Source: a virus
Taxonomy: Duplodnaviria; Heunggongvirae; Uroviricota; Caudoviricetes
IMG/VR virus record: IMGVR_UViG_2690316267_000013
DNA: 10,743 nucleotides
Direction: 5' to 3' (one strand)
Of this stretch, positions 1-10,704 are shown in pieces. Under the pieces are notes generated by a model, which ran no database searches, was not told the origin of the DNA, and saw only the letters and a list, made by a program, of their open reading frames with translations. Position numbers and translations under genes: made by a program. Positions within the stretch are counted from its first letter, which is position 1; each line of letters opens with the position of its first letter.

Positions 1-2334
1 TCAGGTTGTTGCAGGGTCGTCACATTTTGGCAGCCAGTCGCCGTAGCTTTCCTCTTTCAGCGTCAGGTTGGTCTGTATCCCCTGTTTGGTATGGCGCTTC
101 TCGTAATTCAGTCCGTATTCCTTCAGCATCACCGGCAGCCCCAGCCCGAACATTTTCAGACTGAGTACGTTCCGGTAGCCGTTTGCCTCCATGTAGGCCA
201 GATAGGCGTGATAGAGGTATTTACGGTAATTGCGCGGGATGATACTCGCGTTCCCCATATACATGCCGCTGGTCTGCGGCAGGGTTTCCAGATAGCCGAT
301 AAAATCAAACGTCGGGTCGGCATCCCGTTTGATGTTCAGCGCCTCGTCTGAGTTCTGCTGGGACTGAAGCAGTGACCGGGCGAGCATCGGGTCGCTGAAC
401 TTCTGCATCAGGTGACGCACGATGACCGCCAGCTCGCGGGTGATTTTGTCCTTAAGCTGCGGGTCGCGCTCCTGCGGGGCTATCTGTTCCGGGAAGTGAA
501 TAATCACCCGCCGGCGTGACACGCCGCCGCTGCGGTCGGTGAAGCGCATCGGGTTATTGTTCACGGCCAGAATCACCGCCGGGATGTGCGTGGAGTACGC
601 ATCCCGGTATTTCGGGTCAACGGACACCGCATCGCCGCCGGTGATGGCCTTGAGTCCGGCTCCGTCGCCGCTCCATTTTTCCTGGTCCGGCAGGCGTATC
701 AGTGAGAAGCCAGTTAACGCGGCACGTTCACGCGGGGATTCCAGCGTCTCAATGGTGGCCGACGTGGCGTTATCTTCCCCGGCCAGCAGGGTGGCTATTT
801 CGGCCATGATACTTTTGCCGCTGCCGCCGGGACCGGTCACCTCCAGAAAGAGCTGCCAGTCGTAGCGGTTTGCCAGCACCATAAACAGTGCGGCCAGAAT
901 CACGTCGCGTTTTTCCGCACGACCACCGGCGGCACGGTCAAGCCAGCGCCAGAACGCGGGGGCGTGGGTTTCCAGCGTTTCCCCTTCCACCGGCGGGGTG
1001 AAATCCACATCGCACAGGGTGCGCATCCAGTGTGACGGACTGTGCGGGTGGAACGTGCCGCTCTGCGTGTCGAGCACGCCGTTACGAAAGCCAATCAGGC
1101 GGCGGGAGGGGGCTTCCTGCTGCGGAATAATCAGCTTCAGGGTGTCCACCACGGAGGCCACCTTCCCGGAGGAGAACGGCGCGCGCAGCCGCTGAAACAG
1201 CCCGGCCACATCCCGGGCAAAGTCCTGTGGTGGCAGCACCTTCCAGACACCATTTTCATAACGGGACAGAAGCTGGCCGTTGGCATCGACCGCGAGCGCC
1301 TCGCCGTAATGCTCATAGATACGCATGGCCTTTTCGCTGGTACTCATGGCGGAAAACTCCGCTTCGCTCATGGTGTCGAACGGGCTTTCAGCCGGTGGCC
1401 GGATGGCATCATAAATGGCCTTACGGGTGGCTTCCCCGCCGTACTGCGTGAAGGCATCATTCCAGTCACCGAAGACCGGCGGCAGGGCAACAACACCTTC
1501 ACACGCATCTGCGGCTGCGGCGGCTTTTGTCTGGCCGTCACCGCTGAGGTCACGGTCAGCAGCAAGGACAATATGACAGGCCGGATGCTTCTGCCGGGCA
1601 AGGCTGGCCAGAGAAAGGAGGTTCACGGAAGAAAGCGCCACCATCACCGTTTCACCGGTCAGGTGATGTACGGTAAGTGCGGTCGCGTATCCCTCCGCTA
1701 TCCACAGACGTTTTCCGGCCTGATTCTGTCCTTCAAGGGTGTGACAGGTGCCCCTGACCTGTCCGCCTTTCAGGGTACGCTTACGGCCGTCAGCACTGAT
1801 TAACTGAAGGTTAACCAGTTCGCCGCTGTCGTCATACAGTGGCACCACAAGGTCACCGGCGCGCCAGCTCACGCCACCGGCTCTGTGTGTGCCGGTCAGC
1901 ATCCGGCATTCCCGGCCGGGAAAGCCCTTGCGGGTCAGGTAGGCGTTACCGGTTCCGGGACGGGTTTTTGCCATCAGGGTTTGTGCCAGTGCGGCGGCGT
2001 TCTTCCGGGCAGCGTCTGTTTCAGCAACGGCGGCGGCCGTCACTGCCGGGTCAGCCGGGGGCAGACTGCCGGTCACGGCAGCCACCTTTGCGGCCGCGTC
2101 GGACGGGGAGACACCAAACACCTTTTCAACCAGTTTCAGGCCGTCACCGGCACCACACTGATTGCAGTACCAGGTGCCGCGCCCCTCCCTGTCATCAAAA
2201 CGGAAGCGGTCACTCCCGCCACAGACCGGACAGGGCTGATGACGGTTTTTCAGCACCTGAATCCCCAGCGCCGGGAGAATACGCGGCCAGTGGCCGAGCG
2301 CATGGCTGACGGTGGCGGTTACGTTCATTTTCAT
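1..2334 (-). CDS. alpha: P4-type alpha replication protein: zinc-ribbon/TOPRIM primase fused to a P-loop helicase, 777 aa
   Basis: N-terminal Cys4 motif (CPVCGG...CNQCG), TOPRIM acidic motif (LAADRD), Walker A (GPGGSGKS). Length is identical to P4 alpha. SD aaggag lies about 9 nt upstream of the ATG at 2332-2334. Stop codon at 1-3. Confidence 0.9.
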   Translation of the reverse strand: MKMNVTATVSHALGHWPRILPALGIQVLKNRHQPCPVCGGSDRFRFDDREGRGTWYCNQCGAGDGLKLVEKVFGVSPSDAAAKVAAVTGSLPPADPAVTAAAVAETDAARKNAAALAQTLMAKTRPGTGNAYLTRKGFPGRECRMLTGTHRAGGVSWRAGDLVVPLYDDSGELVNLQLISADGRKRTLKGGQVRGTCHTLEGQNQAGKRLWIAEGYATALTVHHLTGETVMVALSSVNLLSLASLARQKHPACHIVLAADRDLSGDGQTKAAAAADACEGVVALPPVFGDWNDAFTQYGGEATRKAIYDAIRPPAESPFDTMSEAEFSAMSTSEKAMRIYEHYGEALAVDANGQLLSRYENGVWKVLPPQDFARDVAGLFQRLRAPFSSGKVASVVDTLKLIIPQQEAPSRRLIGFRNGVLDTQSGTFHPHSPSHWMRTLCDVDFTPPVEGETLETHAPAFWRWLDRAAGGRAEKRDVILAALFMVLANRYDWQLFLEVTGPGGSGKSIMAEIATLLAGEDNATSATIETLESPRERAALTGFSLIRLPDQEKWSGDGAGLKAITGGDAVSVDPKYRDAYSTHIPAVILAVNNNPMRFTDRSGGVSRRRVIIHFPEQIAPQERDPQLKDKITRELAVIVRHLMQKFSDPMLARSLLQSQQNSDEALNIKRDADPTFDFIGYLETLPQTSGMYMGNASIIPRNYRKYLYHAYLAYMEANGYRNVLSLKMFGLGLPVMLKEYGLNYEKRHTKQGIQTNLTLKEESYGDWLPKCDDPATT

Positions 2335-3260: not shown

Positions 3261-3540
3261 GCGTCCTGTCTCCCCGGTCTTTCTGCTGGGCGAGAAAATC
3301 GCGGCACAGGCCTTTGGCTTTCAGCTCATTCAGCACAAAATCAATATCTTCATTCAGGTAGCTGAAAATATGCGGAATGTAGAGCTGATGCAGGCCGGAG
3401 AGTTCACGGTGAATCAAATCACCCCCAACAAACTGGGATACGGCGCTGGCGCGGTTGAGCTTATGGTAAGCCTCAATGCTGAGGTGTTCACGGGCGTCAT
3501 GACGTGCTGAGACGGTCTGAGGGGCTTTTTTATTACGCAC
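3253..3540 (-). CDS. 95-aa protein with GTG start; possible equivalent of P4 epsilon (helper-prophage derepression) by position
   Basis: GTG at 3538-3540 is preceded by a strong SD (GGAGG, 6-nt spacer). It reads to TGA at 3253-3255. The ORF track merges this into a longer 177-aa ORF, but the SD-GTG context supports the 95-aa product. The functional call is positional only. Confidence 0.45.
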
Positions 3541-3730
3541 GGGACACCTCCACCACCGGCAGACGGGCAGCAAGGGAGAGCACATAGTCACGGACAAGGG
3601 AACGGCGGGCGCTGCGTTCATCACCGGCGACGGTGCGAAGCATACAGATACGGGGATGACGGCCTGCGCGACGGACAGCCGCAAACACAAAGACAAATTC
3701 AGGGTGTGAGGGGGTAAGGGTTGTAGCCAT
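3533..3730 (-). CDS. 65-aa first ORF of the left operon, Kil-like by position; its SD overlaps a seqC-like RNA target site
   Basis: ATG at 3728-3730 with SD AAGGAGG (plus-strand 3739-3745). Its stop overlaps the GTG of the next gene (GTGCGTAA). The ORF track extends this frame to 199 aa, but the upstream part is low-complexity and covers the immunity RNA region. Confidence 0.45.
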
Positions 3731-3741
3731 GATGGCAGCCT

Positions 3742-3782
3742 CCTTGAAGTAACAGTTACAGCTACCACTGGAGTTCCTACGC
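3742..3782 (-). promoter_or_regulatory. seqC-like target site (ccttgaagtaac ... gagttcctacgc) complementary to seqB of the candidate CI RNA
   Basis: Shares two sequence blocks with the site at 3963-3990. Both blocks are complementary to 3805-3828. Overlaps the SD of the 65-aa ORF. Confidence 0.5.
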
Positions 3783-3789
3783 TCATGGG

Positions 3790-3875
3790 TGGTAGCCCGG
3801 ACGGGGGTAGGAATACCGGCCTTCAAGGAAACCGGCCAGCCCGAAGGCTGCCCCGCCCGGACCACCATTATCTGA
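3790..3875 (-). ncRNA. cI: Candidate CI-like immunity RNA containing a seqB element (approximate boundaries)
   Basis: Non-coding stretch between the two target-like sites. It contains 3805-3828 (gggggtaggaataccggccttcaagg), the reverse complement of blocks in both flanking sites. A stable hairpin with a UUCG tetraloop on the minus-strand RNA lies at 3837-3850, and a possible closing stem pairs ggtggtccgg with ccgggctaccacc. Ends were not determined. Confidence 0.4.
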
Positions 3876-3962
3876 CAGAGGCTACGGTTTAAAAACCACA
3901 GCCAGAAAAACAGGTGTGCCGAAGCAACGACGTAAAAAAAGACGCATGGCGCGTCATATGTC

Positions 3963-3990
3963 GCCTTGAAGTAACTCGGGTTCCTACGCC
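3963..3990 (-). promoter_or_regulatory. seqA-like target site in the leader of the early leftward transcript
   Basis: ccttgaagtaac at 3964-3975 and ggttcctacgcc at 3979-3990, both complementary to the seqB-like element at 3805-3828. Confidence 0.5.
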
Positions 3991-4018
3991 CGGCTGCCGA
4001 TTTTGCGGCAGCGGAAAA

Positions 4019-4048
4019 ACTATATCCGCAAATGCCGGAAAAAGGCAA
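4019..4048 (-). promoter_or_regulatory. Candidate sigma70 early leftward promoter (PLE-like)
   Basis: On the minus strand: -35 TTGCCT (4043-4048), 18-nt spacer, -10 TATAGT (4019-4024). This would start the transcript about 20 nt upstream of the seqA-like site. By eye only. Confidence 0.35.
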
Positions 4049-4083
4049 GCCAGAAAAAGGGAGTTTTTGCAGAGCGGGCATCA

Positions 4084-4350
4084 TCATGCGTCGTACCCCC
4101 GTTTGCGTCCGGCAATGCGTCCGGCCATCCATGCGGTGACTTCAGAGTGCAGCCAGGCCACATTTTTACCGCCAAGACTCACCTGCGGCGGAAATTCCCC
4201 CTTACGGATGAGTTCATAGATGGTCGAGCGTGACAGGCCGCACAGGTGCATCACTTCCGGCAGACGTAAAAAACGCTCCTGCGTGATGTCCGGCAGCGGC
4301 ATCAGTGGCGTCACAGGGGCGGGAGACGGGGAAGAAAAAACAGCTTGCAT
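4084..4350 (-). CDS. vis: Vis/AlpA-family small HTH DNA-binding protein (late-promoter regulator and excision factor), 88 aa
   Basis: 88-aa ORF with SD gaggt about 7 nt upstream of the ATG. AlpA-like signature (LRLPEV...[16 protein letters not shown]). Same size and position as P4 vis (orf88). Confidence 0.75.
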
Positions 4351-4452
4351 CGGGCTACCTCGTTAATGTCCATACAGCACCGGATAAGTCCGTCCGGCTT
4401 CGGGTAGCGCTTTATTTTGTGAATATTTTTGGCAGACGCAACAGGGGGGATT

Positions 4453-4470
4453 TGTTCCGGCAGCCTTACA
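4453..4470 (-). promoter_or_regulatory. TGT-N12-ACA box (Delta/Ogr-type activator site) for the leftward late promoter (PLL-like) upstream of vis
   Basis: TGTtccggcagccttACA with exact 12-nt spacing, centred about 110 bp upstream of the vis ATG. Confidence 0.4.
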
Positions 4471-4496
4471 ATGACTGTGTGTTTTTTGTTCATTCC

Positions 4497-4525
4497 CACT
4501 TAAAGTCATTTAAAGCCACTTAAAG
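4497..4525. repeat. Three tandem 10-bp repeats CA(C/T)TTAAAG with one-helical-turn periodicity
   Basis: cacttaaag at 4497-4505, catttaaag at 4507-4515, cacttaaag at 4517-4525. Confidence 0.6.
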
Positions 4526-4629
4526 CAATTCGTAATTTTTATAGTGAAATACAAATCGTTTCTTCTTATTCATTCACGGCGAATTAATAAAAACAAACAG
4601 TAGTAAACAGCACAAAAAGTCCATGAGCG

Positions 4630-4733
4630 GGTGAACAGTGGTGAACAGACGGTGAACAGTCATTACTGCGATTGTTCACCCTTTAACTTACTGTATTACT
4701 TATCTTTTTTCTTATGGTGAACAGAGGTGAACA
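4630..4733. repeat. Iteron cluster: six copies of the P4 type-I octamer TGTTCACC (five as GGTGAACA, one inverted); putative alpha-binding origin
   Basis: GGTGAACA at 4630-4637, 4640-4647, 4651-4658, 4716-4723 and 4726-4733; TGTTCACC at 4673-4680. The cluster is flanked by a direct repeat aaacaaacagta at 4591-4602 and 4748-4759. Confidence 0.6.
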
Positions 4734-4812
4734 GTAAAATATAAAAAAACAAACAGTAAGCCGGTTTTTCCTGCGACCTTTTCCTGGCTTGCCGGTCTGA
4801 GGATGAGTCTCC

Positions 4813-4830
4813 TGTGTCAGGGCTGGCACA
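4813..4830 (+). promoter_or_regulatory. TGT-N12-ACA box (Delta/Ogr-type activator site) of the sid late promoter (Psid-like)
   Basis: TGTgtcagggctggcACA with exact 12-nt spacing, centred about 80 bp upstream of the sid ATG, consistent with a -55 activator site. Confidence 0.5.
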
Positions 4831-4902
4831 TCTGCAATGCGTCGTGTTGTTGTCCGGTGTACGTCACAATTTTCTTAATCTGAAGTGACGAGGAGCCGGA
4901 AA

Positions 4903-5637
4903 ATGTCTGACAACACCATCCCTGAATATCTGCAACCCGCACTGGCACAACTGGAAAAGGCCAGAGCCGCTCATCTTGAGAACGCCCGACTGATGGATGA
5001 GACCGTCAAGGCCATTGAACGGGCAGAGCAGGAAAAAAATGCGCTGGCGCAGGCCGACGGAAATGACGCTGATGACTGGCGCACAGCCTTTCGTGCAGCC
5101 GGTGGTGTCCTGAGCGACGAGCTGAAACAGCGCCACATTGAGCGCGTGGCACGCCGGGAGCTGGTACAGGAATATGACAATCTGGCCGTGGTGCTGAATT
5201 TTGAACGTGAACGCCTGAAAGGGGCGTGTGACAGCACGGCCACCGCCTACCGGAAGGCACATCATCACCTTCTGAGTCTGTATGCAGAGCATGAGCTGGA
5301 ACACGCCCTGAATGAAACCTGTGAGGCGCTTGTCCGGGCAATGCATCTGAGTATCCTGGTACAGGAAAATCCGCTCGCCAACACCACCGGCCATCAGGGC
5401 TACGTCGCACCGGAAAAGGCTGTCATGCAGCAGGTGAAATCATCGCTGGAACAGAAAATTAAACAGATGCAAATCAGCCTCACCGGCGAGCCGGTTCTCC
5501 GGCTGACCGGACTGTCAGCGGCAACACTCCCGCACATGGATTATGAGGTGGCAGGCACACCGGCACAGCGCAAGGTGTGGCAGGACAAAATAGACCAGCA
5601 GGGAGCAGAGCTTAAGGCCAGAGGACTGCTGTCATGA
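4903..5637 (+). CDS. sid: Sid, capsid size-determination external scaffold protein, 244 aa
   Basis: ATG at 4903 preceded by SD aggag with a 7-nt spacer; the ORF track starts 18 nt earlier at an in-frame GTG at 4885. Length from the ATG equals P4 Sid. Coiled-coil-like, Ala/Glu/Leu-rich sequence. Stop overlaps the delta start (ATGA). Confidence 0.85.
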   Translation: MSDNTIPEYLQPALAQLEKARAAHLENARLMDETVKAIERAEQEKNALAQADGNDADDWRTAFRAAGGVLSDELKQRHIERVARRELVQEYDNLAVVLNFERERLKGACDSTATAYRKAHHHLLSLYAEHELEHALNETCEALVRAMHLSILVQENPLANTTGHQGYVAPEKAVMQQVKSSLEQKIKQMQISLTGEPVLRLTGLSAATLPHMDYEVAGTPAQRKVWQDKIDQQGAELKARGLLS

Positions 5638-7254: not shown

Positions 7255-8964
7255 ATGAGTATGTTTCAGATATCAGCTGGAGTGTTCTTTGATTTAGATA
7301 AAATAGAAAAACACGATGGCACATTTGTTTTTTATTCAAATGTTGATGTGTCTTTCTCGGTGGAAAACACCTCCCCTCTTTTTAAAGCAAATAAAATAAG
7401 TCATGATGGTATAAACTGTTATGTGGTAAACTATACTCTCCTGACCGAAAAACCAGAACGAATTGAAGCTGGAGTCGTAGTTAGGGCTGGTGATGAGGAT
7501 TATAGGCAACAATTTATTTTATTATGGGAATTCTATTTTGATTGTGTGGCTAGAGTAGAAAAAGAATCGGTTAAAAAAATATGTGCATTATCAAATTTTA
7601 ATAAACATCACTCAAAAATTGCGCTTGAAGTTGCCCCATATTTAGTGGAGATTAATCGAAGAGTTTCATTTGATGATGTCTCTGGGTTTTCTGCTTTTAT
7701 TAAAGATGTAGTGAATCTAAATAGATCTGCCTTTAAATCTTTAATGGCAGCGTTAAAAATAATTAGTGATTCAAAAGAATCATTGTCAACCAACTTTGAC
7801 CTGACTTATTCCATGTTAGTCTATGCCTTGGAGTCTTTGTCTCAAAGAAATGATAACTATAAGTCTGATTGGGATGACTACGATCAAAAAACCAGAGGTG
7901 AATTAGAGTCTGTATTTGAGCATATGCCTGGTGAGGATGTTTGTAAAATTAAATCAATACTTATTGAAGGCAAACAATTCAGATTACAAAAAAGGTTCAA
8001 AGATTTTATACTGAAAAATCTTGAAGAAAATTATTTCAATGAAACAGAGAGATATCCAATCCGCTATAGCTTCCTTAGTAGAGCTTTAGATAATTTATAC
8101 AAAATCAGGTCTTCTTTTGTCCATGAGCTTAAGCCACTTGATGCAATGATCTCGAAAGCCTACAATCCTGTTGGTGATTGTCTGGTTCTTTTTGGCGAAC
8201 CTCACTTCAGTTACTCTGGATTGCTTCGACTTCTTCGCCATGTGATAATAAATTTTTGCCGTAAAAACTACAGTCAAAAAAGAGAGTCTGTTAATTGGGT
8301 GATGGAAACATCGGGTGTAATGGTTGCAGAGATATCTGCACAATATTGGCTCTGGAATGCAGACGGATTTACAGCTAAAAGTATAGCGAAGTGGTTTAGT
8401 GAATACCTAAATATGTTAAATTTAGGCGAAGTCACTGATTTGCAGTCTATCATGGACAAAATTGAGATAATCTATGATCAATCCAAAAAAGAATATAAAA
8501 ATGGGTTGTTGCATTTTTATTTCTTATATAACTTAATGCATAATGGAAATAAGGGTGAATGGCTTGAGTTTGCGAACAAGCGAAGTTCTATACTTGTTTG
8601 TGATATATATTGGTATTCATGCTCTCCATATTTATATAAATCATTTACTAATGTTTCAAATGGTATTGCTGATATAAAAACATTGAGAAACTTTTTGTCT
8701 TGTTTTAACGAATATGATAAAAATAAATTTAAGCCAAATCGTTTAAATCTCCCTGCAATGACCGAAGTAATTATGTTGGCTTGCGCAGCAAATTCATTCT
8801 TCAGAATTGGAATGTATCAAGACTATGTTTTAATGGGCAATAGAGCGATGAGAGAAATTGCTTCAGTAAAAGATGTATTTTATTATATAAAAGAACGATT
8901 AAGTAATTCACAACTTATTGAATTGGACGAGTGCTTGAGATTGTATAGAAAAAAGGGGGGCTAA
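7255..8964 (+). CDS. Low-GC cargo protein of unknown function in the cos-int hotspot (569 aa from the first ATG; 567 aa from the better-placed ATG at 7261); candidate anti-phage or abortive-infection protein
   Basis: Long uninterrupted ORF with SD aagga 6 nt before the ATG at 7261. Composition is AT-rich and Lys/Asn/Ile/Phe/Tyr-rich, contrasting with the GC-rich satellite core. No Walker A and no YxDD motif. One R-x4-H motif (IRSSFVHE, codons at 8104-8127). Occupies the position where P4 carries gop-beta-cII. Confidence 0.8.
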   Translation: MSMFQISAGVFFDLDKIEKHDGTFVFYSNVDVSFSVENTSPLFKANKISHDGINCYVVNYTLLTEKPERIEAGVVVRAGDEDYRQQFILLWEFYFDCVARVEKESVKKICALSNFNKHHSKIALEVAPYLVEINRRVSFDDVSGFSAFIKDVVNLNRSAFKSLMAALKIISDSKESLSTNFDLTYSMLVYALESLSQRNDNYKSDWDDYDQKTRGELESVFEHMPGEDVCKIKSILIEGKQFRLQKRFKDFILKNLEENYFNETERYPIRYSFLSRALDNLYKIRSSFVHELKPLDAMISKAYNPVGDCLVLFGEPHFSYSGLLRLLRHVIINFCRKNYSQKRESVNWVMETSGVMVAEISAQYWLWNADGFTAKSIAKWFSEYLNMLNLGEVTDLQSIMDKIEIIYDQSKKEYKNGLLHFYFLYNLMHNGNKGEWLEFANKRSSILVCDIYWYSCSPYLYKSFTNVSNGIADIKTLRNFLSCFNEYDKNKFKPNRLNLPAMTEVIMLACAANSFFRIGMYQDYVLMGNRAMREIASVKDVFYYIKERLSNSQLIELDECLRLYRKKGG

Positions 8965-8980: not shown

Positions 8981-10157
8981 CGTATTCTCCCCACCAATCC
9001 ATCAATTCAATTCGCTGCACGAGATAAGTAGAACGATTGTATGCTTTTCTAACTTCATTTTTATCACTGTGGGCTAAGGCAGACTCGATAACATCAGGAT
9101 TTAATCCAGCTTCATTCATGGCTGTACTTGCTATTGAACGTAATCCATGGGCAACTAATTTTCCGCCAAAACCAATACGTTTTAAAGCTGCATTTGCAGT
9201 CTGACTGTTCATTGGTTTCTTTGGGTCATTCCGACTCGGAAAAACATATTCACGATGAGCACTAATAGGCTTCATCACATTAAGAATCTCTAATGCCTGA
9301 GATGATAGAGGAATTATGTGTTCCCGTTTAGCCTTCATCCGTTCGGCAGGAATCGTCCAGAGCTTTGCATGAAGATCGATTTCTTCCCACCGAGTACTGG
9401 AGGCTTCAGAAGGGCGCACAAGAGTCAGGAGTTGCCATTCAATTAGACAGCGAGTCGGGATAGACAGATTTGACATGACTAAAGAACGCATCAGCTTTGG
9501 TAATTCTTCAGGTCGAAGCGTCGGCATGTTTTGTTTTTTTGGCTTTTCGAAGGCCATGCCAACACCTGATGCTGGGTTTGCATCAATCAAGCCAGTGTTA
9601 ACCGCATAAATCATTATTTCGTTAATGCGTTGCACCAGACGACGTACAGTCTCTAATGCCCCACGAGCTTTGACTGGCTCAAGTGCTTCGACCAATGTTC
9701 TAGCTTTGATCTGCTGAACGGGCATCTCACCAACGGCGGGGAATACATCTTTTTCCAATGAGCGCCAAATATCTTTTGCATAATCAGGGGTAACACTTTT
9801 GCTTTTGAGCTGAAACCAATTAGCGGCGACCGTCGAGAAAATACTGTCCTGTGCGATTTGCTGCTGTTCCTCTGCAATTTCAGCTTGAATTTGCGGGTCA
9901 ATTCCGTTGGCTAACAAGGAAAGGTAATCCGCTCTTAAGCGTCGGGCGTCAGCAAGTGAAAGGGCTGGGAAGGCTCCTAGCCCCATCATTGTCCGTTGCT
10001 TTGTTGCCGGACGTTGATAACGGAAACGCCATAACTTCTTACCGTTCGTTTTAACGAGTAGAAAAAGACCATCGCCATCATGCAACGTTAGATCCTTTTC
10101 TAACGCTTTAGCGCGCAGTACTTCTGTGTTGGTCAGGGGGCGTGTCGTTCTTGCCAA
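8961..10157 (-). CDS. int: P4-type tyrosine integrase (N-terminal arm-binding domain plus catalytic domain), 398 aa, TTG start
   Basis: N-terminus typical of P4-family integrases (LTNTEV...GLFLLVKTNGKKLWRFRYQ...LGAFPALSLADAR). Catalytic-type HGLR and C-terminal Tyr region (RKAYNRSTY). SD gaaggag lies 8 nt upstream of the TTG at 10155-10157. Adjacent to and co-oriented with ssrA. Confidence 0.9.
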   Translation of the reverse strand: MARTTRPLTNTEVLRAKALEKDLTLHDGDGLFLLVKTNGKKLWRFRYQRPATKQRTMMGLGAFPALSLADARRLRADYLSLLANGIDPQIQAEIAEEQQQIAQDSIFSTVAANWFQLKSKSVTPDYAKDIWRSLEKDVFPAVGEMPVQQIKARTLVEALEPVKARGALETVRRLVQRINEIMIYAVNTGLIDANPASGVGMAFEKPKKQNMPTLRPEELPKLMRSLVMSNLSIPTRCLIEWQLLTLVRPSEASSTRWEEIDLHAKLWTIPAERMKAKREHIIPLSSQALEILNVMKPISAHREYVFPSRNDPKKPMNSQTANAALKRIGFGGKLVAHGLRSIASTAMNEAGLNPDVIESALAHSDKNEVRKAYNRSTYLVQRIELMDWWGEYVKNKRG

Positions 10158-10176: not shown

Positions 10177-10230
10177 ATTGGTATACGCGTTTAGGTATAC
10201 ATCCTACCGTATACCTAAACGTATACCAAT
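10177..10230. promoter_or_regulatory. Imperfect palindrome with four GGTATAC motifs between the int SD and ssrA; candidate Int/Vis operator or attP arm-type sites
   Basis: Left arm attggtatacgcgtttaggtatac (10177-10200) and right arm gtatacctaaacgtataccaat (10209-10230) are near-perfect reverse complements separated by 8 bp. GGTATAC occurs at 10180-10186 and 10194-10200, and inverted at 10209-10215 and 10222-10228. Confidence 0.5.
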
Positions 10231-10271
10231 AATCACTGGATTTAGCTGGATATCCTCGGACAACGGTAGAC

Positions 10272-10306: not shown

Positions 10307-10341
10307 TTCAGGATTTCTCCGGACGTATCCGGAAGAGCAAG

Positions 10342-10704
10342 TGGTGGAGCTGGCGGGAGTTGAACCCGCGTCCGAAATTCCTACATCCTCGGTACTACAT
10401 GCTTAGTCAGTCTTTACATTCGCTTGCCAGCTGCGGACGGACACGCCACTAACAAACTAGCCTGATTAAGTTTTAACGCTTCAACCCCAGGCAGGGCTTC
10501 CACGCGATCTCTTTTGGGTTTGACCTCTCTTGATCCCCGTCCTAAGAGCGGAGGCTAGGGAGAGAGGGCTCTAAGCAGGTTATTAAGCTGCTAAAGCGTA
10601 GTTTTCGTCGTTTGCGACTATTTTTTGCGGCTTTTTACGAGGCCAACCGCCCCTCGGCATGCACCTTGGGTTTCGCAAATCCCGTCGAATCCAGAATCAG
10701 CCCC
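10342..10704 (-). ncRNA. ssrA: tmRNA (SsrA), 363 nt, enterobacterial type
   Basis: The reverse complement reads GGGGCTGATTCTGGATTCGACGGG ... and ends ...GTTCAACTCCCGCCAGCTCCACCA, matching E. coli tmRNA as I recall it. It includes the tag-peptide reading frame GCAAACGACGAAAACTACGCTTTAGCAGCTTAA (ANDENYALAA stop) at 10583-10615. Confidence 0.95.

Follow-up and report, generated by a model that had tools for sequence, protein, structure and literature searches.

The three head-to-tail 10-bp repeats upstream of the leftward late promoter PLL are very probably a helper-sensing operator, namely a site at which the Cox protein of helper phage P2 would bind, because they match the cox-box consensus, keep its spacing and resemble the Pc operator of P2. 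For these three decamers in particular, the assignment as a Cox site is drawn from the consensus, the published location and orientation and the uniqueness of the array, and not from a comparison of footprint coordinates. The nature of the repeats is already known, as the 'type 2 repeats' of satellite phage P4 are the P2 Cox boxes at PLL. The original footprint of the P2 Cox site upstream of P4 PLL is reportedly that of Saha, Haggard-Ljungquist and Nordstrom in 1989. The public label 'ori type 2 repeat' hides this helper-sensing role and points to a replication reading instead. The repeats would be the place where the satellite listens for its helper, and the value of the finding lies in their correct labelling.

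The window (the whole stretch of 10,743 nucleotides that was analysed, virus record IMGVR_UViG_2690316267_000013) is a P4-type satellite prophage with the gene order of satellite phage P4, and its positions 4300-4900 are 97% identical to P4 (X51522 / NC_001609). E. coli STEC308 carries an intergenic region identical to that of the window. The genes are as follows:

1-2334, minus strand: alpha (777 aa)
2349-2669: cnr
between cnr and the Ash-family ORF in gene order: orf151 and the derepression (epsilon-family) ORF
3533-4132: Ash-family ORF
4084-4350, minus strand: vis (orf88), first gene of the PLL transcript, AlpA family (PF05930, E 7e-21)
plus strand: sid, delta, psu operon, with sid at 4903-5637
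7255-8964, plus strand: 569-aa ORF in the psu-int hotspot, replacing gop/beta/cII of P4
8961-10157, minus strand: int, tyrosine integrase
10342-10704, minus strand: complete tmRNA gene (tag ANDENYALAA), adjoining the element

The complete tmRNA gene that abuts the element places the integration site of the satellite at ssrA, whereas P4 uses a leucine tRNA. The Int of the satellite shares only 36% identity with that of P4, and GGTATAC-containing repeats are present as an inverted pair at about 10180-10230. No Pfam family covers the 569-aa ORF, and PADLOC matched it weakly to Cas13-ApeA (residues 150-275, E 7e-6). The ORF is regarded as a candidate cargo gene with an anti-phage role.

The repeats and the late promoter elements around them are located at the following positions:

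4454-4471: TGT-N12-ACA activator box (Delta/Ogr site) of the leftward promoter PLL, by pattern match
4496-4525, plus strand: three head-to-tail 10-bp units, CCACTTAAAG / TCATTTAAAG / CCACTTAAAG, by Tandem Repeats Finder and the X51522 annotation
4814-4831: TGT-N12-ACA activator box of Psid, for the rightward sid-delta-psu operon, by pattern match

Tandem Repeats Finder delimited the array at 4496-4526 (period 10, 3.1 copies, consensus CCACTTAAAG), and CAYTTAAAG was found exactly at 4497, 4507 and 4517 on the plus strand, with no other zero-mismatch match in the window. Both searches confirm the three tandem 10-bp repeats that a sequence-only reading had reported at 4497-4525, and their position between the leftward activator box (4454-4471) and the iterons (4630-4733) was given correctly as well. 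A single 9-mer of the type CAYTTAAAG is common, with 5 matches against 4.7 expected in the window when one mismatch is allowed. The phased triple TTAAASNCM (same strand, 10-11 bp apart, at most one mismatch in total) is present once in the window, at 4500, and was reached in none of 1000 dinucleotide-preserving shuffles; with up to three mismatches it was reached in one of 1000. The repeats are real and far from chance. In the whole genome of P4, phased cox-box triples are likewise confined to the same region upstream of PLL, and the 30-base array is identical at 30/30 bases to P4 X51522 9176-9205 (window coordinate + 4680 = P4 coordinate). The P4 records annotate three copies of 'ori type 2 repeat' there, at 9176-9185, 9186-9195 and 9196-9205, within 'rep_origin 9086-9809'.

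The cox boxes start 29 bp past the TGT-N12-ACA box of PLL, on the side away from vis. The Delta/Ogr boxes of P2 and P4 late promoters are centred near -55; by this rule the start of PLL would lie near 4408 and the cox boxes at about -92 to -120. A scan of 4300-4920 for the sigma-70 consensus found no promoter, which is expected for activator-dependent late promoters. On the rightward side, a second TGT-N12-ACA (TGTCCGGTGTACGTCACA) is present at 4851-4868, 37 bp downstream of the Psid activator box and near the inferred Psid start. P4 Delta has an additional promoter-proximal site at Psid.

The 10-bp units become cox boxes when they are read with a four-base shift. The consensus of the P2 cox box is TTAAA(G/C)NC(A/C), with box starts 10-11 bases apart (PMC3936717, PMC5009727), and the following boxes were found against it:

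4489-4497, plus strand: TTCATTCCC, a weak box on the promoter-proximal side, 11 bp ahead of box 1, 3 mismatches
4500-4508, plus strand: cox box 1, TTAAAGTCA, 0 mismatches
4510-4518, plus strand: cox box 2, TTAAAGCCA, 0 mismatches
4520-4528, plus strand: cox box 3, TTAAAGCAA, 1 mismatch; GCAATTC comes next, as it does in the Pc operator of P2

The weak box at 4489, which reads TTCATCTCC in P4 with 2 mismatches, is polymorphic among satellites, and its role is uncertain. Boxes 1 to 3 all lie on the plus strand and read 5' to 3' away from PLL. In P4, the Cox site is located upstream of PLL with its boxes facing away from the promoter, and derepression of the lysogen needs P2 cox (PMC3936717, PMC5009727). 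The RefSeq annotation of P2 also states that cox activates a promoter of satellite phage P4. Published Cox sites have at least six boxes, with at least 70 nt protected and the DNA bent (PMC3936717, PMC5009727), whereas the consensus recognises only three strong boxes and one weak box here, the in-phase positions to the right having 4-6 mismatches.

The region occupied by the array, at offsets of about 130-200 from the vis ATG and just past the PLL box, is referred to below as the slot. The P2-type slot was compared with helper phage operators by consensus scanning and by Smith-Waterman scores against shuffles. With the Pe-Pc operator of P2, CACTTAAAGTCATTTAAAGCCACTTAAAGCAATTC aligned against CACTAAAAGGCATTATAAGACATTAAACGCAATTC at 27/35 bases (z = 8.5), a score reached by none of 300 shuffles, and the slot also aligned with the annotated Cox site at P2 attP (z = 4.6). 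No alignment of the slot with the operators of WPhi or 186 was obtained by Smith-Waterman against shuffles. Plain BLAST of the P2-type slot against P2-like loci returned nothing specific, because the boxes of P2 itself are degenerate. Cooperative binding of a small DNA-binding protein on one face of the helix, as first suggested from the letters of the repeats, is supported by these findings, three copies one helical turn apart being the signature of such a protein. The idea of a switch element beside the leftward late promoter is also strengthened, since the array matches cox boxes upstream of PLL.

The P4 records invite a different explanation, in which the repeats are an accessory origin element ('type 2 iterons') that ori1 requires and to which alpha or a host factor binds. 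In P4, the 'ori type 2 repeat' does fall within the rep_origin feature, with about 105 bp separating it from the type 1 iterons. The features concerned are:

4630-4733: ori1 core, six type 1 iterons (GGTGAACA/TGTTCACC) flanking a 35-bp AT-rich spacer
4630-4637, 4640-4647, 4651-4658, 4673-4680, 4716-4723 and 4726-4733: the type 1 iterons

This cluster had been recognised as origin-like from the sequence, and rightly so, as the P4 annotation lists six 'ori type 1 repeats' of ori1 here. Its identification as crr was considered and rejected, since the annotation gives ori1 and crr lies outside the window. Tocchetti et al. reportedly narrowed the minimal ori1 in 1999 to 123 bp with six type 1 iterons and a 35-bp AT-rich stretch. 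This minimal origin presumably maps to about 4625-4750 here, which excludes the repeats. The ori1 iteron core was kept in all P4-like loci examined. In about 20 P4-like loci from other genera, the type 1 iterons, alpha (79-88%) and Cnr (80-92%) are conserved, but the slot is replaced wholesale; for crr, the second origin component, the P4 annotation contains only type 1 repeats. An accessory origin function is for these reasons highly improbable, and the repeats behave as a transcriptional operator and not as an initiator site. Binding of Cox here may nevertheless be compatible with a second protein using the same DNA.

Conservation of the array was assessed at two levels. Among 5426 complete E. 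coli genomes, 441 contain the 66-nt region around it with an identity of at least 90%. In addition, 49 satellites were retrieved from viral contigs (L252-L300) by anchoring on the exact 22-nt PLL box, and these fell into three slot cassettes: the P2-type array in 28, a second cassette (…GCTTTAAAACGCTCTGGAAGGAGCTGGAAAAAATT…) in 16 and a third (…CCGGACTGGAAGGGTCTCAAAGGGTTCTGAAGGACCTGGAA…) in 5. In 27 of the 28 P2-type satellites the three boxes are invariant, the 29-bp core having one singleton change, and the flanks of the array are polymorphic at 5-10 of 28. This invariance gives modest support for constraint, divergence being low. Conservation in related satellites, which had been proposed as a check, was seen among the carriers of the P2-type cassette and did not extend to other P4-like satellites, which have different arrays.

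Of the 5426 complete E. coli genomes, 373 carry the second E. coli cassette (the CTGGAAGGAGCTGGAA type, seen at 1625-1700 of L170/L171). It bears a weak resemblance to the Pe-Pc region of phages with a Cox that shares 80-84% identity with WPhi Cox (z = 3.1-4.1). The third, WPhi-type cassette shares GGACTGGAAGGG…GTTCTGA with the attP region of WPhi (z = 6.8). Most of the WPhi-like viral contigs begin at int. Since the same Vis and the same PLL box occur with three unrelated cassettes, these comparisons suggest that the slot recombines as a module.

The three cassettes also bear on the binding proteins that had been named as candidates at the outset, namely Vis, Int and IHF. Under the first of these proposals, the repeats would be sites of the satellite's own Vis, an AlpA-type excisionase/regulator that would act through them to repress PLL and to stimulate Psid. 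As a small recombination directionality factor, Vis belongs to a kind of protein that binds direct repeats one helical turn apart (PMC7498355). In the RefSeq record of P4 it is called 'excisionase and transcriptional regulator'. Polo et al. reportedly described in 1996 that Vis regulates PLL. However, Vis is identical to that of the window at 87-88 of 88 residues in satellites of all three unrelated cassettes (P2-type, L170-type and WPhi-type), with the exception of two outliers (84 and 39), so the slot varies while the protein does not. The int-att regions of the element and of P4, moreover, share phased YGGA triples that are unlike TTAAAG, despite the 36%-identical Int and the different arm sites. 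With a 10-bp spacing, YGGA is found at 10237/10247/10257 and 10320/10330 in the window and at 3973/3983/3993 and 4046/4056/4066 in P4. The full sites extend over 10237-10260 and 10320-10333 in the window, and over 3973-3996 and 4046-4069 in P4 (L044). Vis probably binds at these phased YGGA sites instead. In 2004, Cali et al. reportedly described a pair of Vis boxes located between int and the core of attP. One further site of this kind is proposed in the leader of PLL:

4369-4392, minus strand: putative Vis site, TGGA / CGGT / CGGA at exact 10-bp spacing, inferred by analogy

Vis as the protein that binds the TTAAAG repeats is accordingly considered very unlikely.

Practically negligible probability is given to the repeats as Int arm-type or IHF sites, in a region with a recombinational or architectural function. 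It is true in general that Int and IHF bind AT-rich or repeated sites in the regulatory DNA of satellites and phages, but the array lies more than 5 kb from the att site, and no IHF consensus (WATCAANNNNTTR) with at most one mismatch was found within 4380-4780, which speaks against IHF. As for Int, the protein is only distantly related to that of P4 and the arm-type repeats beside int are of the GGTATAC type here against the ATGCCCCCAAT type in P4, yet the array is identical in both.

An explanation without any protein was weighed as well, in which phased A-tracts (TTAAAG every 10 bp) bend the DNA and tune PLL, or in which the array is a neutral product of slippage. Helically phased short A-tracts are expected to curve DNA, and the units here are short. 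Against this explanation, the match to the published 9-bp consensus includes positions 6, 8 and 9, which lie outside the A-tract; the array also resembles the operator of P2 itself, and it is invariant in 27 of 28 satellites with polymorphic flanks. In other satellites, furthermore, the arrays match operators of other helpers, including the GC-richer TGGCAA type, which is not expected to bend alike. Intrinsic bending or slippage is hence regarded as extremely improbable, and binding of P2 Cox remains the preferred reading of the repeats.

Beyond E. coli, the same slot holds 3-6 units of TGGCAAnnnn, inverted once, in satellites of Klebsiella, Raoultella, Citrobacter, Enterobacter, Kluyvera, Tatumella and others. 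The Apl operators of phage 186 (L167) are TGGCAA-type hexamers every 10-11 bp, at 2157-2224 and 176-222, and are annotated as seven at pR-pL and five at attP. Satellites with TGGCAAnnnn arrays are among L004-L040, L085, L096, L135 and L153, and the phages with such arrays are L051, L066, L082, L107, L111, L126, L131 and L140. When viral contigs were scanned by pattern for TGGCAA-type arrays, four P4-like satellites and some ten 186-like phages were obtained. The array of these phages lies upstream of an Apl homologue that shares 92% identity with 186 Apl, and in five of the eight 186-like loci examined in detail it is also found beside the 3' end of int.

When a strict chain was defined as at least three phased hexamers, each within one mismatch of TGGCAA, 9 of 25 satellite loci contained such chains, in each case within the slot and nowhere else in 328 kb. 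In 186-like phages they are restricted to the switch and attP, and in 854 kb of other P2-like loci one chain was found. A search of 80 P2-like loci for phased hexamer chains of at least four units yielded two arrays, this search definition being too strict. The many satellites with arrays of the 186 Apl operator type in the slot suggest, from these sequence matches, helper-specific operator mimicry.

Further slot arrays were encountered during these comparisons. Those of the TTGGCCATTA type (L009, L012, L032, L033, L168) are moderate in their likeness to Apl operators (z of about 6), and the slot arrays of L027 and L029 matched no helper operator class in the sample. In a WPhi-like phage, L179, four phased TTGCAT units with an 11-bp period were observed at 8563-8598 (also in L182, at about 8572-8598); their position is not in the switch but upstream of a gene of 827 aa, in the hotspot that adjoins gpQ. 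The TGCAAT-type array of L029 shares a 14-nt exact match with the L179 array, which was set aside as probably due to chance, the L179 array lying outside the switch. A viral-contig scan for the TTGGCC-type array returned 12 satellites and no phage. In L304 and L327, the vis-eta-cnr block was observed twice at a distance of about 2.6 kb, with a TTGGCC-type slot array at either copy; this could represent a tandem or partially duplicated satellite.

Four slot types can be distinguished: the P2 type (TTAAAGNCA), the 186 Apl type (TGGCAAnnnn in 3-6 copies), the WPhi type (GGACTGGAAGGG) and a fourth from E. coli (CTGGAAGGAGCTGGAA). We lean slightly towards the view that the slot is a swappable helper-sensor cassette, in which phased arrays mimic the Cox or Apl operators of helpers and decide which helper wakes the satellite. 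WPhi Cox does not bind cox boxes and does not activate P4 (PMC5009727), and the array type should therefore matter for helper specificity. The matches of other satellites' arrays to helper operators in turn support the logic of a Cox operator in the window. No description of slot diversification was found in the literature searched, which covered little of the older P4/P2 work, and the exchange of helper-specific operator mimics as cassettes is possibly new. If this view is true, the slot sequence would predict which helper phage activates which P4-like satellite. It would also be a concrete case of a parasite copying the operator of its host virus and swapping it as a cassette, and would offer a handle for engineering helper specificity in P4-based delivery systems. 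This cassette-like exchange is the part that deserves follow-up.

For the satellite in the window, the following course of events is proposed. On infection of a satellite-carrying cell by P2, or on derepression of a resident P2, Cox would accumulate; this 91-aa protein, the product of the first early gene of P2, would be supplied in trans by the helper and not by the satellite. Cox is a winged-helix protein, and each protomer would contact one 9-bp box TTAAA(G/C)NC(A/C). It assembles into a filament, a left-handed helix in which the DNA-binding elements face outwards and one protomer per helical turn contacts the major groove; in the published proposal, the cox boxes start such a filament, and its growth follows the direction in which they point (PMC3936717). 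The near-perfect boxes at 4500, 4510 and 4520 would thus nucleate cooperative binding, and Cox would spread from them rightward, away from PLL, leaving the promoter free and bending or wrapping at least 70 bp of DNA. The remaining footprint beyond the visible boxes would need non-specific spreading, which is documented for Cox (PMC3936717) and Apl (PMC7498355). PLL would then be activated leftward, with transcription of vis, eta, the immunity region, epsilon, cnr and alpha, and the prophage would escape immunity, excise and replicate from the adjacent origin. In this scheme the sequence match, phasing, orientation, position, identity to P4 and likeness to the P2 operator come from the present analysis; the binding of Cox upstream of PLL, its protection of at least 70 nt, activation and derepression are taken from the literature.

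Compared with named systems, the array is closest to the Cox site at P4 PLL (Berntsson et al. 2014, PMC3936717), with the same 30-bp array, position, orientation and 10-bp spacing. The satellite differs from P4 proper in its location at ssrA, its 36%-identical Int and its different cargo gene. The type 1 iterons of P4, which are bound by alpha, are similar in being short direct repeats near helical periodicity in the annotated origin. However, they are of another sequence, and the repeats described here are absent from crr and not conserved together with alpha. The Apl operators of 186 are alike in consisting of direct-repeat hexamers with a period of 10-11 bp, to which a small recombination directionality factor with an additional role in transcriptional regulation binds cooperatively (PMC7498355). 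They differ in the recognised sequence, TGGCAA, and in the protein, and they are absent from the window but occupy the same slot in many P4-like satellites. The Pc operator and the attP Cox site of P2 share with the array the same consensus boxes at 9-10 bp spacing, and 27/35 bases including the trailing GCAATTC. The boxes of the satellite are even closer to the cox-box consensus than those of P2 itself, with 0, 0 and 1 mismatches against 1, 2 and 0. In P2 the boxes overlap Pc and repress it, whereas in the satellite they lie upstream of PLL, face away from it and would activate it.
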